Shown here: positions 50,239 to 62,128 of the stretch, in pieces | How the letters are laid out: each line of letters opens with the position of its first letter | Position numbering within the stretch: the first letter of the stretch is position 1 | NCBI GenBank assembly: GCA_965238005.1 | Contig: OZ250165.1 | Span: 1,664,001 to 1,728,000 of the forward strand | Length of the DNA: 64,000 bases | DNA from: Longimicrobiales bacterium | Lineage (GTDB): Bacteria > Gemmatimonadota > Gemmatimonadetes > Longimicrobiales > Gaopeijiaceae | Direction: 5' to 3' | Position numbers and translations under genes: made by a program | Notes under the pieces: generated by a model | Seen by the model: the letters and a program-made list of their open reading frames with translations, nothing else | Told to the model about the DNA's origin: nothing | Database searches by the model: none

Positions 50239-50274
50239 ACCTGAATGTCCGAGCCGAGCGCCTCACCGCCGCTC

Positions 50275-50662
50275 TGAACAGCGCACCTGATCGTTGACAC
50301 AATGGTGCCAGCTGATGGTTAACAGATTGGGTTACGTCCTGTGTTACCGTGGGTGTCGCAAATGACGAAGAGTTCTTCGTCAAACCACCCGAGGGTAGTG
50401 GGTCCGAAGTAGACCTGCCACAGAGCGGGACCGATGGGTTCGAGCCCGATGAAGTCGTTGCCCAGAGCTGAGCTGACGTTGATCCAACGGGAGTGCCAGC
50501 GGATCCCTCCGTTCGTAGAAACCTTTCGGACCTCGAAGTGCTCGGGGTACTCGAGCGGAGGAAGGGTCTCAGGGTAGGCTTTAGAGGCAGATCGGTAGAC
50601 GGAGTCGGGAGTCGCATCGTCGAGAGCCTCGTGCGGCCGGATGTGATTGAAGATGTGGAGGA
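50275..50662 (-). mobile_element. IS481-family right-end relic
   Basis: FN..RPHEAL...TP..VY, RKV..NG.I.W; terminus ...TGTTCA with repeated subterminal motifs; cut by IS3. Confidence 0.75.
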
Positions 50663-53338: not shown

Positions 53339-53745
53339 AGCAGCCGTAGTAAATGCGTTCCTCACGGCACGGGTGCTCTTGGTGGGTGGGTTCCTTTTGG
53401 CGCTTCCACATATCACCCGCAAGGGACTGCTCTTCGGCGTGTGTACGTCGGCGAGGACCTTGCCGCGGGAGACGCCGCGCGCCGGCTCCGGCAGCGCTGG
53501 AATCGCGGTTGCGTGGCGGTGATGGTGATGTCACTCGCTATCGGCCTGGCGATCAGTTTCGCGGGTTGGCCGGTCACGGGTAACCTCACCGGTACGCCCA
53601 AGGTCTGGCACGGAACAGGTGGAGGGATAACTTGGGCGTGTGAGGGGACCGCCCCTTCCTTGCACGACAGTTCTACCGGCCGCATTCGCTTTCGCCGGGG
53701 TCACGGTCATCTTAAAGGACTAGGGTGACGACTGGAGGTTCAAAG

Positions 53746-55098
53746 ATGACAGGTCGCACAGGCGTACCCGGTGGGTTGGAGCTCGGCATGCTTGCAATCG
53801 TCCTCTGCGCCCCACATCCCGGTTCGAGCCAAGACGTGCAGCAAACCTCTTGCTCGGATATCAGCGTGTTGAGATCGGTGGAAATCCTGGTCTCGTGTGC
53901 CACCACCGGGGACGAGCTCGCTCAGTTCCGCCTCGGGCTGATGTACGATCACGGTTTGGGGGTGCCCGAAGACGATGTTGAAGCAGTCCGCTGGTTTCGG
54001 CTAGCGGCAGAGCAAGGGCTTGCTGAGGCTCAACACAACCTCGGATTCCACTACGCAAACGGTGAGGGCGTTTCCGAAGACGATGTCGAAGCAGTTCGCT
54101 GGTACCGATTAGCGGCAGAGCAAGGCGACGCTAGGGCTCAAAACAACCTCGGATTCCAATACAGAAACGGTTATGGCGTCCCCGAAGACGACGCCGAGGC
54201 CATTCGCTGGTATCGATCAGCGGCAGAGCAGGGCGACGCTATGGCTCAATACAACCTCGGGAACATGCACGCCATCGGGGAGGGCGTTCCCGAAGACGAC
54301 ACCGAGGCAGTCCGCTGGCTTCGGCTAGCCGCAGAGCAAGGCCATGCTCGAGCTCAGTCGAATCTCGGGATCATGTACGCCGACGGTGAGGGCGTTCCCG
54401 AGGAGGCTGCCGAGGCAATCCGTTGGCTTCGGCTGGCTGCTGAGCAAGGGCTTGCTCGGGCTCAATACAACCTCGGGCTCATGTACGCCAACGGGGAGGG
54501 CGTTCCTGAGGATGATGCCGAGGCAGTTCGGTGGCTTCGGCTGGCCGGTGAGCAAGGCTATGCTAGGGCTCAATACAACCTCGGGAACATGTACGCCAAC
54601 GGTGAGGGCGTTCCCGAGGATGATGCCGAGGCAGTCCGTTGGTATCGGCTGGCCGCTGAGCAAGGGCTTGCTCGGGCTCAATACAACCTCGGGCTCATGT
54701 ACGCCAACGGGGAGGGTGTTCCCGAGGACCATGCTGAGGAAGTTCGGTGGCTTCTGTTGGCTGCTGAGCAAGGCTATGCTCGGGCTCAATTCAACCTCGG
54801 GAACATATACGCCAACGGTGCAAGTGTGCCCGAGGATGATGTTGAGGCAGTCCGTTGGCTTCGGCTGGCTGCTGAGCAAGGGCTTGCTCGGGCTCAATAC
54901 AACCTTGGGAACATGTACGCCAACGGGGAGGGCGTTCCCGAGGACTATGTCCTCGCATATGAGTGGTACGACATCTCCGCGGCCCAAGGAAATGAGCTCG
55001 CGCAGAAGAACAAAGAGATAATCGTGCAGCGGATGACCCGCGAGCAGATCGCCGAGGCCCAGAGGCTTTCCCGCGAGTGGCTCGAACAGCATCGCTGA
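53746..55098 (+). CDS. Secreted Sel1-repeat protein (10 repeats)
   Basis: 36-aa AQYNLG.MY.NGEGVPED..EA.RW.RLAAEQG repeats; GGAGG RBS. Confidence 0.95.
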   Translation: MTGRTGVPGGLELGMLAIVLCAPHPGSSQDVQQTSCSDISVLRSVEILVSCATTGDELAQFRLGLMYDHGLGVPEDDVEAVRWFRLAAEQGLAEAQHNLGFHYANGEGVSEDDVEAVRWYRLAAEQGDARAQNNLGFQYRNGYGVPEDDAEAIRWYRSAAEQGDAMAQYNLGNMHAIGEGVPEDDTEAVRWLRLAAEQGHARAQSNLGIMYADGEGVPEEAAEAIRWLRLAAEQGLARAQYNLGLMYANGEGVPEDDAEAVRWLRLAGEQGYARAQYNLGNMYANGEGVPEDDAEAVRWYRLAAEQGLARAQYNLGLMYANGEGVPEDHAEEVRWLLLAAEQGYARAQFNLGNIYANGASVPEDDVEAVRWLRLAAEQGLARAQYNLGNMYANGEGVPEDYVLAYEWYDISAAQGNELAQKNKEIIVQRMTREQIAEAQRLSREWLEQHR

Positions 55099-55280
55099 GT
55101 TTGGAATCTGCGTCCTAAATGGGTCGGGCGTACTGCCCGACCTCGTCGGAGCCGACCTCGGCCAGACGAAGCTAACTGAGTGCGAATCTCGGCGAGGCGA
55201 AACTGGGAAGTGGATCCGGGGACGTATAGATTGGACTTCTTCGTAGCGCACGATTAGGGGGTTGCCTTGTGGCTTCTCCC

Positions 55281-55308
55281 TTGACAGGGGGCTTCTGGCG
55301 ATTAGCGT
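55281..55308 (+). promoter_or_regulatory. Putative sigma70 promoter for the cys leader region
   Basis: TTGACA (55281-55286), 16 bp, TAGCGT (55303-55308). Confidence 0.5.
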
Positions 55309-55360
55309 TGTTCTTTGGAGGATGGGTCACAAAACAGATGTGCGTAAAAGGACGCTGGTC

Positions 55361-55432
55361 GTGATACTCAACAGTTGTTGTTGCCGATGTTCTTGTCCGA
55401 GCCCGGTGGGGTGTCGGGGAGACGTCGTATAG
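55361..55432 (+). CDS. Cys-rich leader peptide 1 (MILNSCCCRCSCPSPVGCRGDVV; alternative ATG at 55322)
   Basis: AAAGGA RBS 8 nt before GTG; 6 Cys codons, 5 of them within 7 codons; TAG at 55430. Confidence 0.75.
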   Translation: MILNSCCCRCSCPSPVGCRGDVV

Positions 55433-55460
55433 GCATACACGCGACTGGATTCCCTGAAGC

Positions 55461-55488
55461 GCCACCGGAGACATTCGGTGGCTTTTTT
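55461..55488 (+). terminator. Attenuator terminator 1
   Basis: GCCACCGGA-GACA-TTCGGTGGC-TTTTTT; its 5' arm can alternatively pair with CCGGTGG (55403-55409). Confidence 0.85.
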
Positions 55489-55508
55489 GTGAGGATTATT
55501 TCCCAGAT

Positions 55509-55544
55509 CAAAAAGGCCATCGGGTTTCGCCGCTGGCCTTTTTG
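55509..55544. terminator. Bidirectional-type intrinsic terminator hairpin
   Basis: CAAAAAGGCCA...TGGCCTTTTTG 11-bp perfect outer stem. Confidence 0.7.
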
Positions 55545-55639
55545 TTCGAACCGGGTAGGACAGGCAGCGGAAGAACTGGAAAACTTAGGACGAGGTATTC
55601 GAAGGCGTGCGGTTCCATGAAGATCTGGAGGTTTTGGAG

Positions 55640-55720
55640 ATGACTCCACGGACGGCCATGTGTTGTTGTTGTTGTTGCACGGTAACGCCTAGAGAGGGGC
55701 GCGTTCCGACGAGTCGTTGA
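55640..55720 (+). CDS. Poly-Cys leader peptide 2 (MTPRTAMCCCCCCTVTPREGRVPTSR)
   Basis: GGAGG RBS at 55627-55631, ATG 55640, six consecutive Cys codons 55661-55678, TGA 55718. Confidence 0.88.
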   Translation: MTPRTAMCCCCCCTVTPREGRVPTSR

Positions 55721-55744
55721 GAAGAAACCAAGACTCAAGCGAAC

Positions 55745-55777
55745 GCCGCGGCCCCTCGAGGGTCGCGGCTTTTTTTT
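55745..55777 (+). terminator. Attenuator terminator 2
   Basis: GCCGCGGCCC-CTCGA-GGGTCGCGGC-T8; competes with antiterminator 55694-55757. Confidence 0.9.
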
Positions 55778-55829
55778 GGGTCTCAACTCTGGAAGAAAGC
55801 ATGTTGAAATTGAAATCGGAAGGCAGCAG

Positions 55830-56528
55830 ATGACTGCGGCGACAGCGGGTATCGAAGACGTGAGATGGATCAACGAACGGCTCGAGGGAGCACATCCTTC
55901 GGACGCCATTCGCTGGGCCGTCGAGAACGTAACGCCCGGGCGGCTGATCGTGGCTTCTTCGTTCGGGTCCACGGGGATGGTGAATCTTCACCTGCTCGCG
56001 GAGATCGCGCCTCAGGTGCCCGTTGCATTCGTGGACACGCTGTACCACTTCCCTGAGACCCTGGAGCATGCCGAGCGGGTGAAGGCACACTATGGCCTCG
56101 ATGTGCGCGTCTACCGGCCCGCCGCGTCACGTGCGGCGTTCCAGGCGAGGTACGGGGAGCGGTTGTGGGAACGTGACTTGGAACTCTTTCATCGACTCAC
56201 GCGGGTCGAGCCCATGAAGCGGGCCCTCCGTGGCGTGGAGGGATGGATCACCGGGCGGCGCCGGGACCAGGCAGCCAGCCGTGCCGCTCTGGCCCACGTG
56301 GAGGTTGGGGATCGCATCAAGATCAACCCGCTGGCCTCTTGGCCGGCCGAAGAGGTTTGGTCCTTCATCCGCGCGAACGGGGTGCCGTACAACCCGCTCC
56401 ACGACCTCGGCTACCAGAGCCTCGGCGACCAACCTCTGACAACGCCCGTTTCCGAGGAAGAGCACGAGCGGGCCGGTCGGTGGAGGGGGAGCCAACGTTT
56501 GGAATGCGGCATACACGCCCTGACGTAA
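55830..56528 (+). CDS. cysH: Phosphoadenylyl-sulfate (PAPS/APS) reductase
   Basis: SSFG, FVDTLYHFPET, WITGRRRDQ, KINPL..W, PYNPLHD.GY.S.G, ERAGRW, C-terminal ECGIH. Confidence 0.95.
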   Translation: MTAATAGIEDVRWINERLEGAHPSDAIRWAVENVTPGRLIVASSFGSTGMVNLHLLAEIAPQVPVAFVDTLYHFPETLEHAERVKAHYGLDVRVYRPAASRAAFQARYGERLWERDLELFHRLTRVEPMKRALRGVEGWITGRRRDQAASRAALAHVEVGDRIKINPLASWPAEEVWSFIRANGVPYNPLHDLGYQSLGDQPLTTPVSEEEHERAGRWRGSQRLECGIHALT

Positions 56529-56556
56529 AGCCTCATGCGGCACACGACTCAACGTC

Positions 56557-57902: not shown

Positions 57903-58011
57903 CTCCACCATCCGCGCCTTGAACTCCGGCGGGTACCGTCCTCGGGTCCTTGGCATCGTGACACCTCCTGTACCTCAGTGTGGAAGTGTCCATCAAACCG
58001 GGCAAACTCCA
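57903..58011 (-). mobile_element. Left-end relic of a related IS3 element
   Basis: TGGAGTTTGCCCGGTTTGATGGACAC...ATG MPRTRGRYPPEFKARMVE, similar to the 6823-6935 left end. Confidence 0.8.
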
Positions 58012-58264
58012 CTCCAGGCACCTCGCCGACGCGTGGCTGCGGAGGGTAGAAGGGATTGCCGAGCTTGAGCCTCAGAAGGGAAGCCTCTGGCATGCATACA
58101 GGCGCAAGTGGGCCACTGAGAGAAAGCACCTTCCCGATGTAGACGTAGCTGCGGCTGGCGGCTGGAAGGGCACTGAGAGCCTCAAGACCGCCTACCAACA
58201 AGCGGACGAGGCCACTATCTTGCGTGTCGTCCTTGAGGCGGCTGAGTTGAGGGAAGCGAAGTGA
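58012..58264 (+). pseudogene. Tyrosine integrase C-terminal fragment
   Basis: WHAYRRKWATERK..P..DVAAAGGWK....L...Y catalytic box II, adjacent to a tRNA. Confidence 0.8.
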
Positions 58265-58361
58265 GAGCTTCCCCAACGTACACAGTAACGTACACACCCT
58301 CAGGTGAGGCCGGGTCTCCCAAGCCAGTCACATGGCTTCATTGTGGGAAGAAGGACCCTTA

Positions 58362-58435
58362 CGGGGCGTGGCGCAGTCCGGTAGCGCGCCTGCTTTGGGA
58401 GCAGGAGGTCCCCGGTTCGAATCCGGGCGCCCCGA
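58362..58435 (+). tRNA. tRNA-Pro (anticodon TGG)
   Basis: CGGGGCG/CGCCCCG acceptor, CCTGC-TTTGGGA-GCAGG anticodon arm, CCCGG-TTCGAAT-CCGGG T arm. Confidence 0.97.
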
Positions 58436-58526
58436 CTGATGTAACTGGTTGCTAGTATCAGCGTTACAGGAAACTCCTCTACGAGATTCTCGAGAGGGGT
58501 CTCTATGTTTCTCTCTTCGGCTGACG

Positions 58527-59936: not shown

Positions 59937-60513
59937 ACTTCGACCCTCCTATCTCCGATCAAGACATCCCCCATGATCGTTCCATCCCCAATTATGACGG
60001 TAAGGGTAGCCAGAACAAAAGCCCTTTCACGGGTCGGGGGATAACTTGAGGGGGAGGACCAAGGCGGTCAACATAAAGCCTTACGCCAGCGTTTGGGGGT
60101 CAAGGGAAGACAGCTGGAGCCGTTGGAGGACTGGGATCGCGATCTCTGAGCCGGAGGGGGCCTGCTGGGGCAGGCGGTCTCTATGTTTGTCTCTATGTTG
60201 GGGACGAGATTGGTGGTGTTTGGAGGCTCGTCTGACCGATGAGAGGATGACTAGACTCCATCCTCTCGAATCGTGAGCTGGCGGTCTCTGGCGCGACAGG
60301 AGCTGAAGCCACCAAGACCAGGGGCCAATGCCATGATCCAGCTGAGACAGCTAGCCCGGTGGGTTCTCGGAACGGACGAGGCCATCAGGAGACCGGCAGC
60401 GGATCGGCTTGCCCCTCTTTGGGAGCGATAGAATCGGGTTGCCCCCCCCGGCCGCTCCCCCCGGCGGTCTGGCATCAAGTATCTGCGGGAATTCGTTAGG
60501 GTGCGTGCCCTAG

Positions 60514-62115
60514 GAGTCTGCGCCGCAGAAGCACAGCTGACTGAGCCGAATGGTCATCGAGCCGTCCGCGGCGAGGCGGATCCGGGTGATTGGGAGGTTG
60601 AGGACTTGTGTCTGCGACGGATCGGGAGAGCGGAATGGATGCGTTGGGGGGGGCAAGAGAGCTACGAGAGCCCTCGCGCCGGCAGATGCGGGTGAACCCT
60701 CGTGCAGTCATGCCGCCTGAAGGGTGTGCAGCCGCTTCACATTGAGTGCCAGGCACACGAGGGTCCACTCGGCCCGGACCTTCTCGAGGCCCCGGAAGCT
60801 GAATCGTCGAAAGCCCATCACTTCCTTGATCCAGCCGATGGGCGCCTCGGCCTGCGACTTTCGCCGTGCGTAGCGTCTGCGGCCATCTTCGCTCGCCAGC
60901 TTCTCCGCCATGCGGACTTTCGCCGGATATTCCTCCTTGTCAACCGTGGGGGCGGCCTTGCCCTCCCGGGCCAGCGCCACATACCCGTCGATGTCTCGCT
61001 CTTCCAGTTCCTCGAGATCCCGCTCGTTGCAATAGCCCGTGTCCGCCAGCACCTGCGCCGGCGTCTCGCCGTACGCTTGCGCCACCGCGTCGACCATGGG
61101 CACCAGCTGGCCCTGGTCGCTCGCGTTGTCCGTCACCTCGGCCCCGACCACCAGCTGGTTCTCCCCCTCCACGACCGTCTGTGCGTTGTAGCACTGCTGG
61201 AACCCCTCCGAACTCGTCTTCATGATCCGGCTCTCAGGGTCCGTGAAGTTGCTCTGCGCCGCCTCGTCCGGCTCTCCGTACTCCCGCTTGTAGGGCCTGC
61301 CGCCCTTCGGGTTGCGCGTCTGCCCCGGCTTGCGGCCCCGTGCGTCGTCCGCCGCTCTCTGCTCGGCTTCCAGGCGCGCCTTCGCCTCCCGGATCGCCGC
61401 CAGCCGGTCCTCGCGCCGCTTGAGCTCCTCCGGCACCTCGTCTCCGCATGCTTCCTCGCCGTAGCGCTCGTCTTCCGCTTCGTCCACCGCCTCGGCCCTC
61501 TCCAACAGCCCCCGGATCTCCGCCTCCAGCCGAGGCTCCCCGGTCACCATCCGGCCGTAGCTCATCGCCTTGCGCTTGTTCGCGTTCGCCCGAACCTTCG
61601 TCCCGTCCACCGACACCCTGCCAAGCCCCGCCAGCCCCAAGGCCCGCGCGAGCATCACCACCTCCACAAACACCGCCCGGAAATCCCCGAGATGGCGCTT
61701 GCGGAACTCGCACAGCGTCCGGTGCTTCGGGAAGTTCTCCGCCGCCAGCATCCGAAACGCGACATCCTCCTCCAGCTTCCTCGCCATCTTCCGCGACGAG
61801 AAGGTGCCCGTCGCATACGCGTAGATCAGCACCTTGACCATCATCCGAGGGTCGTACGGCGAGTTGCGCCGCCCGTCCCCCCGGTACCGCCCGTAGAACG
61901 CGCTCAGCTCCACCGCGTCCACCAGGTCGCTCACATGGTGCGCCAAATGACCCTCCGACACCCACTCCCGAAGATCCGGAGGCAGCAACAACATCTGCTC
62001 CGGATCGTACGGTCGAAATGTCGTTCCCATTCACCCCCCTCGGTGATCCGCAAGCCTTCCCAATGCCTTCGCTACCACCAAAGATAGCCGCCGCAGGGTT
62101 CTGCGGCGCAGACTC
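60514..62115 (-). mobile_element. IS1182-family insertion sequence, copy 4
   Basis: Perfect 17-bp IRs; CTAG duplicated at 60510 and 62116. Confidence 0.96.
60708..62030 (-). CDS. IS1182-family transposase
   Basis: Protein identical to 10738-12060. Confidence 0.95.
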   Translation of the reverse strand: MGTTFRPYDPEQMLLLPPDLREWVSEGHLAHHVSDLVDAVELSAFYGRYRGDGRRNSPYDPRMMVKVLIYAYATGTFSSRKMARKLEEDVAFRMLAAENFPKHRTLCEFRKRHLGDFRAVFVEVVMLARALGLAGLGRVSVDGTKVRANANKRKAMSYGRMVTGEPRLEAEIRGLLERAEAVDEAEDERYGEEACGDEVPEELKRREDRLAAIREAKARLEAEQRAADDARGRKPGQTRNPKGGRPYKREYGEPDEAAQSNFTDPESRIMKTSSEGFQQCYNAQTVVEGENQLVVGAEVTDNASDQGQLVPMVDAVAQAYGETPAQVLADTGYCNERDLEELEERDIDGYVALAREGKAAPTVDKEEYPAKVRMAEKLASEDGRRRYARRKSQAEAPIGWIKEVMGFRRFSFRGLEKVRAEWTLVCLALNVKRLHTLQAA

Positions 62116-62128
62116 CTAGGGGAGAGAT

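Follow-up and report, generated by a model that had tools for sequence, protein, structure and literature searches.

Classical leader-peptide attenuators include trpL, hisL, pheL, thrL and the ilv/leu leaders of Proteobacteria as well as the trp and ilvB leaders of Actinobacteria, while same-ligand tandem riboswitches represent tandem elements reading one and the same signal. To our knowledge, cysteine alone among the amino acids lacks a described case of textbook leader-peptide attenuation of the terminator type. The published Cys leaders, from Actinobacteria and from one prediction in Deinococcus, are in the accounts given of them either without terminators or act on translation (PMC1262725, 10.1101/834739, PMC4007540). 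The attenuators of the mycobacterial 'Cys ribulon' are polycysteine leaderless sORFs; of these, Ms5788A is described as controlling translation, in that it releases a ribosome-binding site from sequestration (Canestrari et al., bioRxiv 10.1101/834739). Similarly, Actinobacterial Cys leader peptides are characterized by Seliverstov et al. 2005 as being without terminator hairpins (PMC1262725). For cysS of Deinococcus deserti, a Cys-codon leader peptide was predicted and transcription attenuation proposed; this frame is leaderless, comprises 10 codons with two Cys and precedes a tRNA synthetase gene, and the relevant part of the report describes no tandem (de Groot et al. 2014, PMC4007540). Tandem attenuators are described in the mgtCBR leader of Salmonella, where mgtM and mgtP each have their own signal, the two being ATP and proline, and act additively (Lee and Groisman 2012, PMC3641672).

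The locus reported here lies in a 64,000-nt stretch of DNA (the window), where two Cys-codon leaders precede cysH (Table 1). The distal one, leader 1 (55281-55543), is likely to be a classical ribosome-mediated (trp-type) transcription attenuator which senses charged tRNA-Cys and controls cysH, and its switch probably turns cysH on only under cysteine shortage. As in classical attenuators, an SD-led short frame carries a cluster of codons for the end product ahead of a biosynthetic gene, the regulatory codons lie in the 5' strand of a predicted protector, and the predicted antiterminator and intrinsic terminator are mutually exclusive. Unlike those systems, leader 1 is predicted to sense cysteine, belongs to Gemmatimonadota and has no Rfam match; in place of the classical four-segment design it has two serial terminators and a possible five-segment relay, and a second, unrelated leader follows it in the same 5' region. 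With the Cys ribulon, as described, the locus shares clustered Cys codons as the proposed stall sensor and a regulon without a protein regulator, in which several sulfur/cysteine loci each have a sORF (here cysH, in two copies with two leaders each, and cysG with sulfite reductase). However, unlike the leaderless sORFs reported from mycobacteria, leader 1 is SD-led and its promoter hexamers end 52 nt 5' of the start codon, the start site itself being a predicted one, and unlike the mycobacterial and Actinobacterial Cys leaders in the accounts cited above, hairpin and U-run terminators follow each sORF. The predicted D. deserti leader is similar in its Cys codons, in the transcription attenuation proposed for it and in its occurrence outside Actinobacteria, whereas leader 1 is SD-led, has 23 codons with six Cys and stands before cysH. 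As reported for mgtCBR, two short ORFs occupy one long leader, each with alternative stem-loops that would govern transcription into the coding region, but both leaders here would read a single signal, Cys-tRNA.

Table 1. Features of the two Cys leaders and of cysH (positions counted from the first letter of the window)
Feature	Position	Strand	Basis
Duplicated module: promoter, leader 1, leader 2 and cysH	55255..56546	+	second copy 25.8 kb downstream in the genome
Promoter-like TTGACA (-35-like, 55281-55286)-N16-TAGCGT (-10-like, 55303-55308) of leader 1	55281..55308	+	read from sequence; function putative
Shine-Dalgarno AAAGGA of leader 1	55347..55352	+	sequence; 8 nt ahead of the start codon
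Leader 1 sORF, 23 codons, MILNSCCCRCSCPSPVGCRGDVV and stop (start GTG 55361, stop TAG 55430-55432)	55361..55432	+	sequence and ORF list
Predicted protector (anti-antiterminator) hairpin	55380..55436	+	no-ribosome minimum-free-energy fold; RNAalifold, 10 sequences
Predicted antiterminator A:B with inner helices	55403..55468	+	minimum-free-energy fold 3' of a Cys-stalled ribosome
Terminator T1 (segments B:C), GCCACCGGA-GACA-TTCGGTGGC with T6	55461..55488	+	terminator scan
A-run and terminator T2 (segments D:E, GGCCAUCGG/CCGCUGGCC) with T5 run	55510..55543	+	aligned as terminator hairpin in the Rfam scan
Conserved 34-nt block between T2 and leader 2	55585..55618	+	alignment of 4 tandem loci
Leader 2: SD GGAGG, sORF 55640-55720 (MTPRTAMCCCCCCTVTPREGRVPTSR and stop), terminator T3 55745-55769 with T8	55627..55777	+	sequence, ORF list, terminator scan
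cysH (PAPS/APS reductase)	55830..56528	+	PF01507, E 1.3e-46

An earlier note on this DNA had described the promoter hexamers, the AAAGGA, the GTG frame and a terminator with a T6 run, and all of these are found where it placed them, the last by the terminator scan. The frame, nested in a longer ORF (55262..55432), contains six Cys among its 23 codons (55376-55384, 55388-55390, 55394-55396 and 55412-55414), against a Cys content of 0.59% of codons in 744 long ORFs of the genome. UGU accounts for 14 of the 18 Cys codons of the leaders but for 25% across the genome, which encodes one tRNA-Cys(GCA). A consensus promoter scan around leader 1 listed 0 sites and did not call TTGACA/TAGCGT, since the -10 hexamer agrees with TATAAT at only 3 of 6 positions; such a scan therefore cannot tell one promoter from two. 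On searching with a covariance model of leader 1 (R1), full-length homologues were obtained in 10 genomes, all from a single clade of Longimicrobiales (Gemmatimonadota), namely this one (G000), L045/G011, L044, L050/G002, L043/G138, L046, L049/G161, L047, L048 and L018/G146. At all 10 loci TTGACA is invariant and TTAGCGT, TTAGTGT or TTATGGT is retained, as are the sORF, the Shine-Dalgarno sequence, of which GGA is invariant in the alignment (A4), and the Cys run, which varies only between TGT and TGC and hence synonymously throughout. The start codon is ATG in nine of them and GTG in this genome.

The gene that follows leader 1, for which the earlier note had suggested a synteny comparison, is cysH in 10/10 genomes, directly downstream, and in this genome together with 151 family genomes R1 found leader 1 nowhere except before cysH. 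Weaker matches in L029/G147 (25 bits) and L033/G168 (24 bits) are also Cys sORFs ahead of cysH, and these two were retained as distant relatives from 21 further family genomes with matches at 20-30 bits; the other 19 were false, being hairpin-only or without cysH or a Cys sORF nearby. A DNA search of 61 relatives gave additional matches that were dropped, three as terminator-only (L005, L008, L009), one restricted to 24 nt of the T1-T2 spacer (L007) and one inside a coding gene (L006).

The folding of leader 1 provides thermodynamic alternatives of the kind expected of an attenuator. In the fold predicted without a ribosome, the strand bearing the Cys codons is base-paired to the terminal part of the sORF, and this helix is capped by a local hairpin over CCCGGUGGGG; the protector helices are 91-99% paired over the 10 sequences, the RNAalifold consensus again pairing the Cys codons with the sORF end, and T1 is retained in nine of the sequences. 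The stalled state was modelled by removing the RNA 5' of a Cys-stalled ribosome prior to minimum-free-energy folding. With the ribosome at Cys 2 or 3, 6/10 sequences, this genome included, fold best into the antiterminator, in which CCGGUGG at 55403-09 (segment A) and CCACCGG at 55462-68 (segment B) are paired with each other around the inner helices CGGGGA/UCCCUG and GUCGU/GCGAC; the alternative helix proposed in the earlier note is thus recovered in full. In the other four (L050, L043, L048 and L018) the stalled-state minimum still contains T1. Pairing of A with B occupies the 5' arm of T1. The outer A:B helix is 94.7% paired over the 10 sequences with 10 of its 17 pairs never varying, and T1, found at all 10 loci, is 95.3% paired. 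These numbers describe close relatives in which most pairs never vary; the covariation score of the antiterminator state was reached by 57 of 500 shuffles and is not clearly above controls, the single-sequence fold z-score of leader 1 is modest (-2.24), and the terminator scan of 1.2 kb gave 2 terminator-like sites against 0.9 expected from shuffles. Additionally, some of the complementarity between segments comes free, since each of the five is a variant of the same CCGG-centred motif.

Beyond T1, leader 1 includes a conserved second terminator hairpin, T2 (55515-55543), which had been overlooked previously and is present at 10/10 loci. Segment D (55510-55524) could base-pair with 55474-55489, which comprises segment C and the U-run of T1. 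As the 5' arm of T2 is thereby complementary to the 3' arm of T1, one stalling decision may set both terminators. When the C..D stretch was folded alone, C:D formed in all 10 sequences, with a free energy equal to or below that of D:E in each. The core C:D pairs likewise persist throughout, with U-A replaced by C-G in L018, a double change, and U-G occurring once, and column 188 in segment D pairs with C in 10/10 but with E in 3/10. With A:B enforced, the minimum-free-energy fold of the whole leader shows C:D in just three sequences (G000, L044 and L046), so the relay would rest on co-transcriptional order; in this genome the full stalled-state fold contains both A:B and C:D. A C:D relay, through which a single stall decision propagates past both terminators, may operate in this leader.

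Leader 2, the poly-Cys leader adjoining cysH, is unrelated to leader 1, as the earlier note had proposed: the covariance models R1 and R2 each match their own leader only. It is complete in four of the 10 leader 1 genomes (this one, L044, L046 and L047, in which it is conserved) and has left remnants in L049 and L048. Its losses in L045, L043, L048 and L049 are independent and differ in their junctions, and in a sample of 151 family genomes searched with R2 it is missing from 149, which indicates that the double check is dispensable. Judged from these sequences, the distal leader 1 is the constant element of the clade and the proximal poly-Cys leader 2 comes and goes. R2 matches to 'C5...ERSVLPSG' leaders in L052, L053 and L055 (15-17.5 bits, E 0.03-0.12) are suggestive, and homology is not claimed for them. 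A different pair of Cys leaders stands in tandem before cysH in G168. Faced with the tandem, the earlier note had left the choice between a double attenuator and two leaders brought together by deletion; its recurrence, complete in four genomes and as remnants in two more, favours the double attenuator, in which both leaders may act in series on one transcript.

The module carrying both leaders and cysH is duplicated, the two copies being 99.85% identical across 1292 bp, of which the first 887 match exactly, and they hold the only PAPS_reduct genes of the genome. Besides the duplicated module, integrase and transposase fragments mark the cysH region as plastic. It had been argued that two such leaders close together are unlikely by chance, and a genome-wide count agrees. 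A filter for at least 3 Cys in 6 codons, in a short frame with a start codon and a terminator within 160 nt, passed 6 of the 386 Cys-clustered short frames in 4.84 Mb, as compared with 0, 0, 0 and 1 matches in four Markov-simulated genomes. The survivors include the two cysH leaders, each counted twice owing to the duplication of the locus, and one leader ahead of cysG, five in all; the sixth, G000:C1:4101284(-), with CRCGRC, was judged a chance match. This third Cys leader precedes cysG and sulfite reductase, in line with the small Cys-attenuation regulon that had been suspected, whereas leaders of this kind looked for before the sat and cysK-like genes of this genome were not found. Across the phylum, a Cys-rich leader is present at all 21 Gemmatimonadota cysH loci examined, in several unrelated types. 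An Rfam scan with E up to 10 gave terminator hairpins only, the best at 20.7 bits where the gathering score is 55; this match, to Thr_leader, and those to miRNA/sRNA families were regarded as terminator-shaped chance matches and none was accepted.

The folds and the conservation together support a Cys-codon leader with its own terminator/antiterminator switch, for which the following course of events can be proposed. Transcription would begin a few bases 3' of TAGCGT, and a ribosome loading at AAAGGA-N8-GUG would translate the 23-codon frame. If Cys-tRNA is ample, the ribosome should reach the UAG, located within the antiterminator region, so that A is held off B, and B forms terminator T1 with C; a polymerase that got past T1 would then meet the D:E terminator T2. 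If Cys-tRNA is scarce, the ribosome would stall on the Cys codons, mostly wobble-read UGU, and melt the protector hairpin, whose 5' strand these codons constitute. A could then pair with B (antiterminator 1), and the freed C with its U-run could pair with the A-run and D (antiterminator 2), such that neither terminator forms. The read-through transcript would enter leader 2, an unrelated poly-Cys leader with its own terminator, T3. With the relay stacked on this second, independent leader, cysH would be transcribed only past three terminators and under two independent Cys-stalling checks, and a lower basal level and a steeper cysteine response would be expected.

The main competing explanation, which we consider unlikely, is that the leaders are independent units: leader 2 would have a promoter of its own that has gone unrecognised and would really control cysH, while transcripts from leader 1 would mostly end at T1/T2 and add little, or act in trans, in the form of a small RNA or peptide that derives from the attenuator and is stable. 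Such an arrangement would suit the succession of two strong terminators behind leader 1 and the conserved 34-nt block upstream of leader 2, and a trans role of leader RNA and peptide has a described precedent in rnTrpL/peTrpL of Sinorhizobium (PMC7298713). RNA-library evidence consists of Logan contigs from relatives at 90-99% identity, giving no starts, ends or strand; those of run X16, which come from relatives and may contain DNA, have a depth of 17.2 over leader 1 against 2.5-4.2 over cysH, a weak hint of leader 1 expression and a difference in the direction expected of independent units. A joint from 55488 to 55796 in a run X19 contig was set aside as evidence, its shorter side being 29 letters at depth 2.6, and it may belong to a relative without T2 and leader 2. 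Promoter scanning listed no site between T2 and leader 2, a result that is also compatible with independent units because the scan is insensitive in this lineage and misses even the promoter of leader 1. Against them, the sequence between T2 and leader 2, the 34-nt block included, contains no TTGAC-type -35, unlike leaders 1 and 3. Moreover, leader 1 with T1 and T2 is the sole element before cysH in 5/10 genomes (L043, L045, L048, L050 and L018), where the gap from T2 to cysH is too short for a promoter, so that T1 and T2 must be passable.

The same five genomes bear on two further readings. That the frame is a functional Cys-rich micropeptide, metal- or redox-active, with the hairpins merely its terminators and the cysH link a matter of functional clustering, is highly improbable: cysH would then be without its own promoter wherever leader 1 stands alone. 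The peptide is strongly conserved past the Cys run (PSPVGCRG), as a micropeptide would be, but the 'PSPVG' codons are exactly the antiterminator strand A, invariant in nucleotides including third positions, and in other Gemmatimonadota the corresponding position before cysH is taken by unrelated frames rich in Cys. Barely credible is the other half of the alternative left by the earlier note, in which the attenuators of two different Cys-regulon genes were joined by deletion of an intervening gene. Though the unrelated sequences of the leaders and the plasticity of the region would suit it, none of the 10 genomes has a gene between leader 1 and cysH, leader 1 occurs alone in half of them, and R1 places leader 1 only before cysH in this genome and the 151 family genomes; joining by deletion is thus not supported.

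Attenuation of cysH by leader 1 may be part of a broader pattern. Tentatively, and with some doubt about the whole, we envisage a protein-free, phylum-wide cysteine regulon of Gemmatimonadota over sulfate reduction, built of fast-turnover classical terminator-type Cys leaders (at least four unrelated types before cysH); in this Longimicrobiales clade a five-segment relay, with one stall setting two terminators, would be stacked on a second Cys leader to give a same-signal tandem attenuator, undescribed so far. The locus is predicted to apply the classical attenuator design to cysteine, in a poorly studied and mostly uncultured phylum. The cross-complementary arms of its terminators suggest how one upstream decision may spread through both of them. 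Where two unrelated leader peptides read the same signal in tandem, much as same-ligand tandem riboswitches do, the response is predicted to be steeper and to leak less, and the repeated independent loss of leader 2 provides a natural one-leader/two-leader series that bears on this prediction. For annotation, such Cys frames should not be called hypothetical proteins, and the leaders described here offer a search model for regulated sulfur-assimilation genes in metagenome-assembled Gemmatimonadota genomes.

The distal leader of the window (leader 1, 55281-55543) is very probably a cysteine-sensing, terminator-type leader-peptide attenuator of cysH, predicted here and conserved in a Longimicrobiales clade. 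All of its elements described in the earlier note are present in the sequence where they had been placed, and its first terminator (T1) was also called by the terminator scan. On promoter scanning of 54900-56100 no promoter was called, TTGACA/TAGCGT being passed over because TAGCGT agrees with TATAAT at only three of six positions. An upstream in-frame ATG (55322) was considered as the start and rejected; since its frame is not kept in homologous loci, the start led by the Shine-Dalgarno (SD) sequence is taken as the real one. No Rfam family matched, with top scores of about 20 bits where the gathering scores lie at 40-88; the top alignments comprised terminator hairpins only. Directly upstream of the leader region lies a gene whose 457-aa product has ten Sel1 repeats (53725-55098), after which a Rho-independent-looking hairpin is found at about 55118-55147.

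Features of the cysH leader region, in window coordinates, and of the third Cys leader, in genome and locus coordinates
Feature	Position	Strand	Basis or detail
Promoter-like TTGACA-16 nt-TAGCGT	55281-55286 and 55303-55308	+	sequence
AAAGGA (SD)	55347-55352	+	sequence
Leader 1 frame MILNSCCCRCSCPSPVGCRGDVV	GTG 55361, stop 55430-55432	+	inside ORF 55262..55432
T1 hairpin GCCACCGGA-GACA-TTCGGTGGC, then T6	55461-55488	+	terminator scan
T2 hairpin AAAAAGGCCAUCGGG-UUUCG-CCGCUGGCC-U5	55510-55543	+	in 10 of 10 loci; absent from the earlier note
Leader 2 frame MTPRTAMCCCCCCTVTPREGRVPTSR and terminator with T8	ATG 55640; terminator 55745-55769	+	downstream of leader 1; sequence, terminator scan
cysH	55830-56528	+	PF01507, E 1.3e-46
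Third Cys leader MSRFDHCACCCCRMTLAREGGSGAGCP	G000:C1:3870700-3870990 (L011 4200-4480)	-	TTGACT-N17-TAATCT promoter-like site and terminator

A covariance model of leader 1 (R1), built from 55345-55548, was searched in 151 family genomes and in loci fetched around cysH relatives. Full-length strong matches among the family genomes were limited to the window's own genome, G000 (two copies), G011, G002, G138, G161 and G146, and among the fetched loci L043-L050 matched; merging records of the same genome leaves ten leader 1 genomes. In every one of them the leader stands directly 5' of cysH with no intervening gene, and the synteny comparison suggested by the earlier note thus gives cysH as the following gene throughout. 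The peptide is kept in homologues (MMLNSCCCRCSCPSPVGCRGDVA, MRLTCCCCRCCCQPSPVGHRGAH and MQTSRCCCRCYCPCPVGYWGTS, among others; the L047 frame is open far upstream and was identified by eye), as are TTGACA, the -10-like hexamer, the SD and the start codon, the Cys run varying only between TGT and TGC. The ten loci form one clade in the cysH tree (support 97/96, midpoint root, many inner forks unresolved). Weak R1 matches in G147 and G168 (about 25 bits) are Cys frames before cysH with a 'TGT CCG AGC C' core; the remaining weak matches, hairpins without cysH, were dropped.

Folding without a ribosome gave three parts, namely a long hairpin formed by pairing of the Cys codons with the frame end and topped by a small hairpin over CCCGGUGGGG, then T1 and then a second hairpin, and RNAalifold on the ten sequences returned the same three elements. 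To model the stalled state, everything 5' of a ribosome halted at the second or third Cys codon was removed from the RNA. Six of the ten sequences, that of G000 among them, then lose T1 and fold best with CCGGUGG (segment A, 55403-09) paired to CCACCGG (segment B, 55462-68), together with the inner helices CGGGGA/UCCCUG and GUCGU/GCGAC; this is the alternative helix proposed in the earlier note. T1 is retained in the minimum-free-energy fold of the stalled state for L050, L043, L048 and L018, and once the ribosome has reached the stop codon T1 alone can form. Pair counts stand at 95.3 % in T1 and 94.7 % in the outer antiterminator helix (10 of 17 pairs invariant), and in G002 the inner helix reads GCGCA/UGCGC instead of GUCGU/GCGAC. 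Covariation is thin because the sequences are close relatives: the antiterminator score was reached by 57 of 500 shuffles, and 4 of 500 matched the count of doubly changed pairs. The arrangement is that of a trp-type attenuator, with the regulatory codons in segment 1 and the stop codon within the antiterminator region.

In five genomes (L043, L045, L048, L050 and L018) no further element follows the second terminator, T2 (segments D:E), before cysH, and the gap is too short to hold a promoter; T2 must therefore be passable in the on state. Segment D (the T2 5' arm with its A-run) is complementary to segment C (the T1 3' arm with its U-run), and the C to D stretch, folded alone, forms C:D in 10/10 sequences, at an energy never above that of D:E (-20.3 versus -20.3 in L045, C:D being 2-5 kcal/mol lower elsewhere). 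All ten keep the eight core C:D pairs; at the central one, U-A occurs in eight, C-G in L018, where both sides have changed, and U-G in L050, and in just three can its D base pair with segment E. In the whole-leader stalled-state fold of G000, A:B and C:D occur together; C:D is part of the minimum-free-energy fold of the whole leader in G000 and L046 and, with A:B enforced, in L044, and in no other of the ten. Segments A-E are all variants of one CCGG motif. We infer a candidate two-terminator relay, a five-segment chain in which A:B pairing would free C and C would capture D before E is made, such that a single stalling decision would cancel both T1 and T2; in the off state, T2 would stop leakage past T1.

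As R1 and the covariance model of the cysH-proximal leader (R2; leader 2, 55627-55777) each match their own leader only, the two are unrelated in sequence, in agreement with the earlier note. Four genomes have the whole of leader 2, namely G000, L044 (with a run of eight Cys), L046 and L047. The stretch from within the Cys run to the U-run has been lost in L049, L048 retains just the 3' arm of the leader 2 terminator, and L045 and L043 have no leader 2, their junctions being different. Carriers and remnants fall inside an inner clade of eight in the cysH tree (99/98), which includes L043 and L045, the simplest account being a tandem in the ancestor of this clade and several later losses of leader 2. 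Across the 151 family genomes R2 found leader 2 in G000 only, plus one weak match. At 15-17.5 bits, R2 also weakly matches L052, L053 and L055, in each case precisely at the single leader; leader 2 may be the older type, though we do not claim this. A 34-nt block (TTAGGACGAGGTATTCGAAGGCGTGCGGTTCCAT, 55585-55618) between T2 and the leader 2 RBS is kept in four of four tandem genomes, with no obvious promoter or pairing role. G168 (L033 1440-1975) has a diverged frame of the leader 1 type, MPASCCGQTCGCPSRKGRRKVD, and then, nearer to cysH, another Cys frame (...GRCCCACS) and a terminator resembling that of leader 2 (T3); its congener G147 (L029) has only the first, distal leader.

Two readings of the tandem had been offered, a double attenuator and two regulon members brought together by deletion. 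The latter finds no support, as no genome examined has a gene between the leaders, and the double attenuator is favoured. Since no TTGAC-type -35 is seen in 55544-55639, unlike at leaders 1 and 3, we favour a single transcript, subject to two Cys checks, that would read through T1, T2 and T3, over the alternative of a weak promoter between the leaders.

A strict filter on the 4.84-Mb genome (at least four Cys in eight codons, a frame no longer than 90 codons and, within 200 nt, a terminator with a perfect stem) left five places, two of them leader 1, two leader 2 and one the third leader. Under a looser filter 6 of 386 Cys-clustered short frames survived, which exceeds the chance level of 0, 0, 0 and 1 survivors in four first-order Markov genomes; Cys codons amount to 0.59 % in 744 long ORFs of the genome. 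Directly 3' of the third leader are a siroheme synthase gene (PF00590, PF13241) and a gene for a 772-aa nitrite/sulfite reductase (PF01077, PF03460); the sat and cysK-like genes of the genome have no such leader upstream. UGU makes up 14 of the 18 Cys codons in leaders 1-3 of G000 versus 25 % in long ORFs, and the single tRNA-Cys gene has anticodon GCA; the bias may reflect slow wobble decoding or U-G pairing in the protector hairpin.

The module 55255-56546, comprising promoter, both leaders and cysH, is repeated 25.8 kb downstream (G000:C1:1745063-1746354; L012 7064-8355) at 99.85 % identity, the first 887 bp being exact. Its edges lie immediately beyond the -35 hexamer on one side and 18 nt past the cysH stop on the other, and the two copies hold the only PAPS_reduct genes of the genome. 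Further duplicated patches (60510-62121 and 50273-50472) show similar offsets, the DNA between patches being different. Integrase and transposase fragments surround both copies; a C-terminal integrase fragment (57980-58436) adjoining tRNA-Pro(TGG) suggests that an integrated element has its boundary a short way 3' of cysH.

Expression was viewed through contigs of relatives from RNA libraries, three of which had leader cover. A 246-nt contig in library X16 spans leader 1 at a depth of 17.2 versus 2.5-4.2 over cysH, and contigs in X19 and X20 cover leaders 1 and 2, respectively; the contig depth faintly hints that short leader transcripts accumulate.

A literature search, within openly available journals, found nothing on leader-peptide attenuation in Gemmatimonadetes and no terminator-type Cys leader before cysH. 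Among published systems, mycobacterial polycysteine leaderless sORFs act on translation (10.1101/834739), Actinobacteria have Cys leader peptides 'without obvious terminators' (PMC1262725), Deinococcus deserti has a predicted two-Cys leaderless peptide before cysS (PMC4007540), tandem attenuators of Salmonella mgtCBR answer two different signals (PMC3641672), and a premature-terminator survey names no Cys leader in the part available (PMC2965389). A Cys frame (at least four Cys in eight codons) within 800 nt upstream of cysH was present in 21/21 Gemmatimonadota loci examined and in 0/6 cysH loci outside the phylum. A terminator between frame and gene was called by rule in 20 of the 21, the remaining locus, L056, having one with a longer loop, identified by eye. 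The frames are of unrelated types (CCCRCSC, poly-C...TVTPREGRVPTSR, CCAMCC, C5...ERSVLPSG and others); L051-L058 and L061 carry unrelated Cys leaders before cysH, each with a terminator that in many cases sits 150-250 nt 5' of the gene. Beside the two-terminator relay, the same-signal tandem would be an additional, putative feature of this cysH control.
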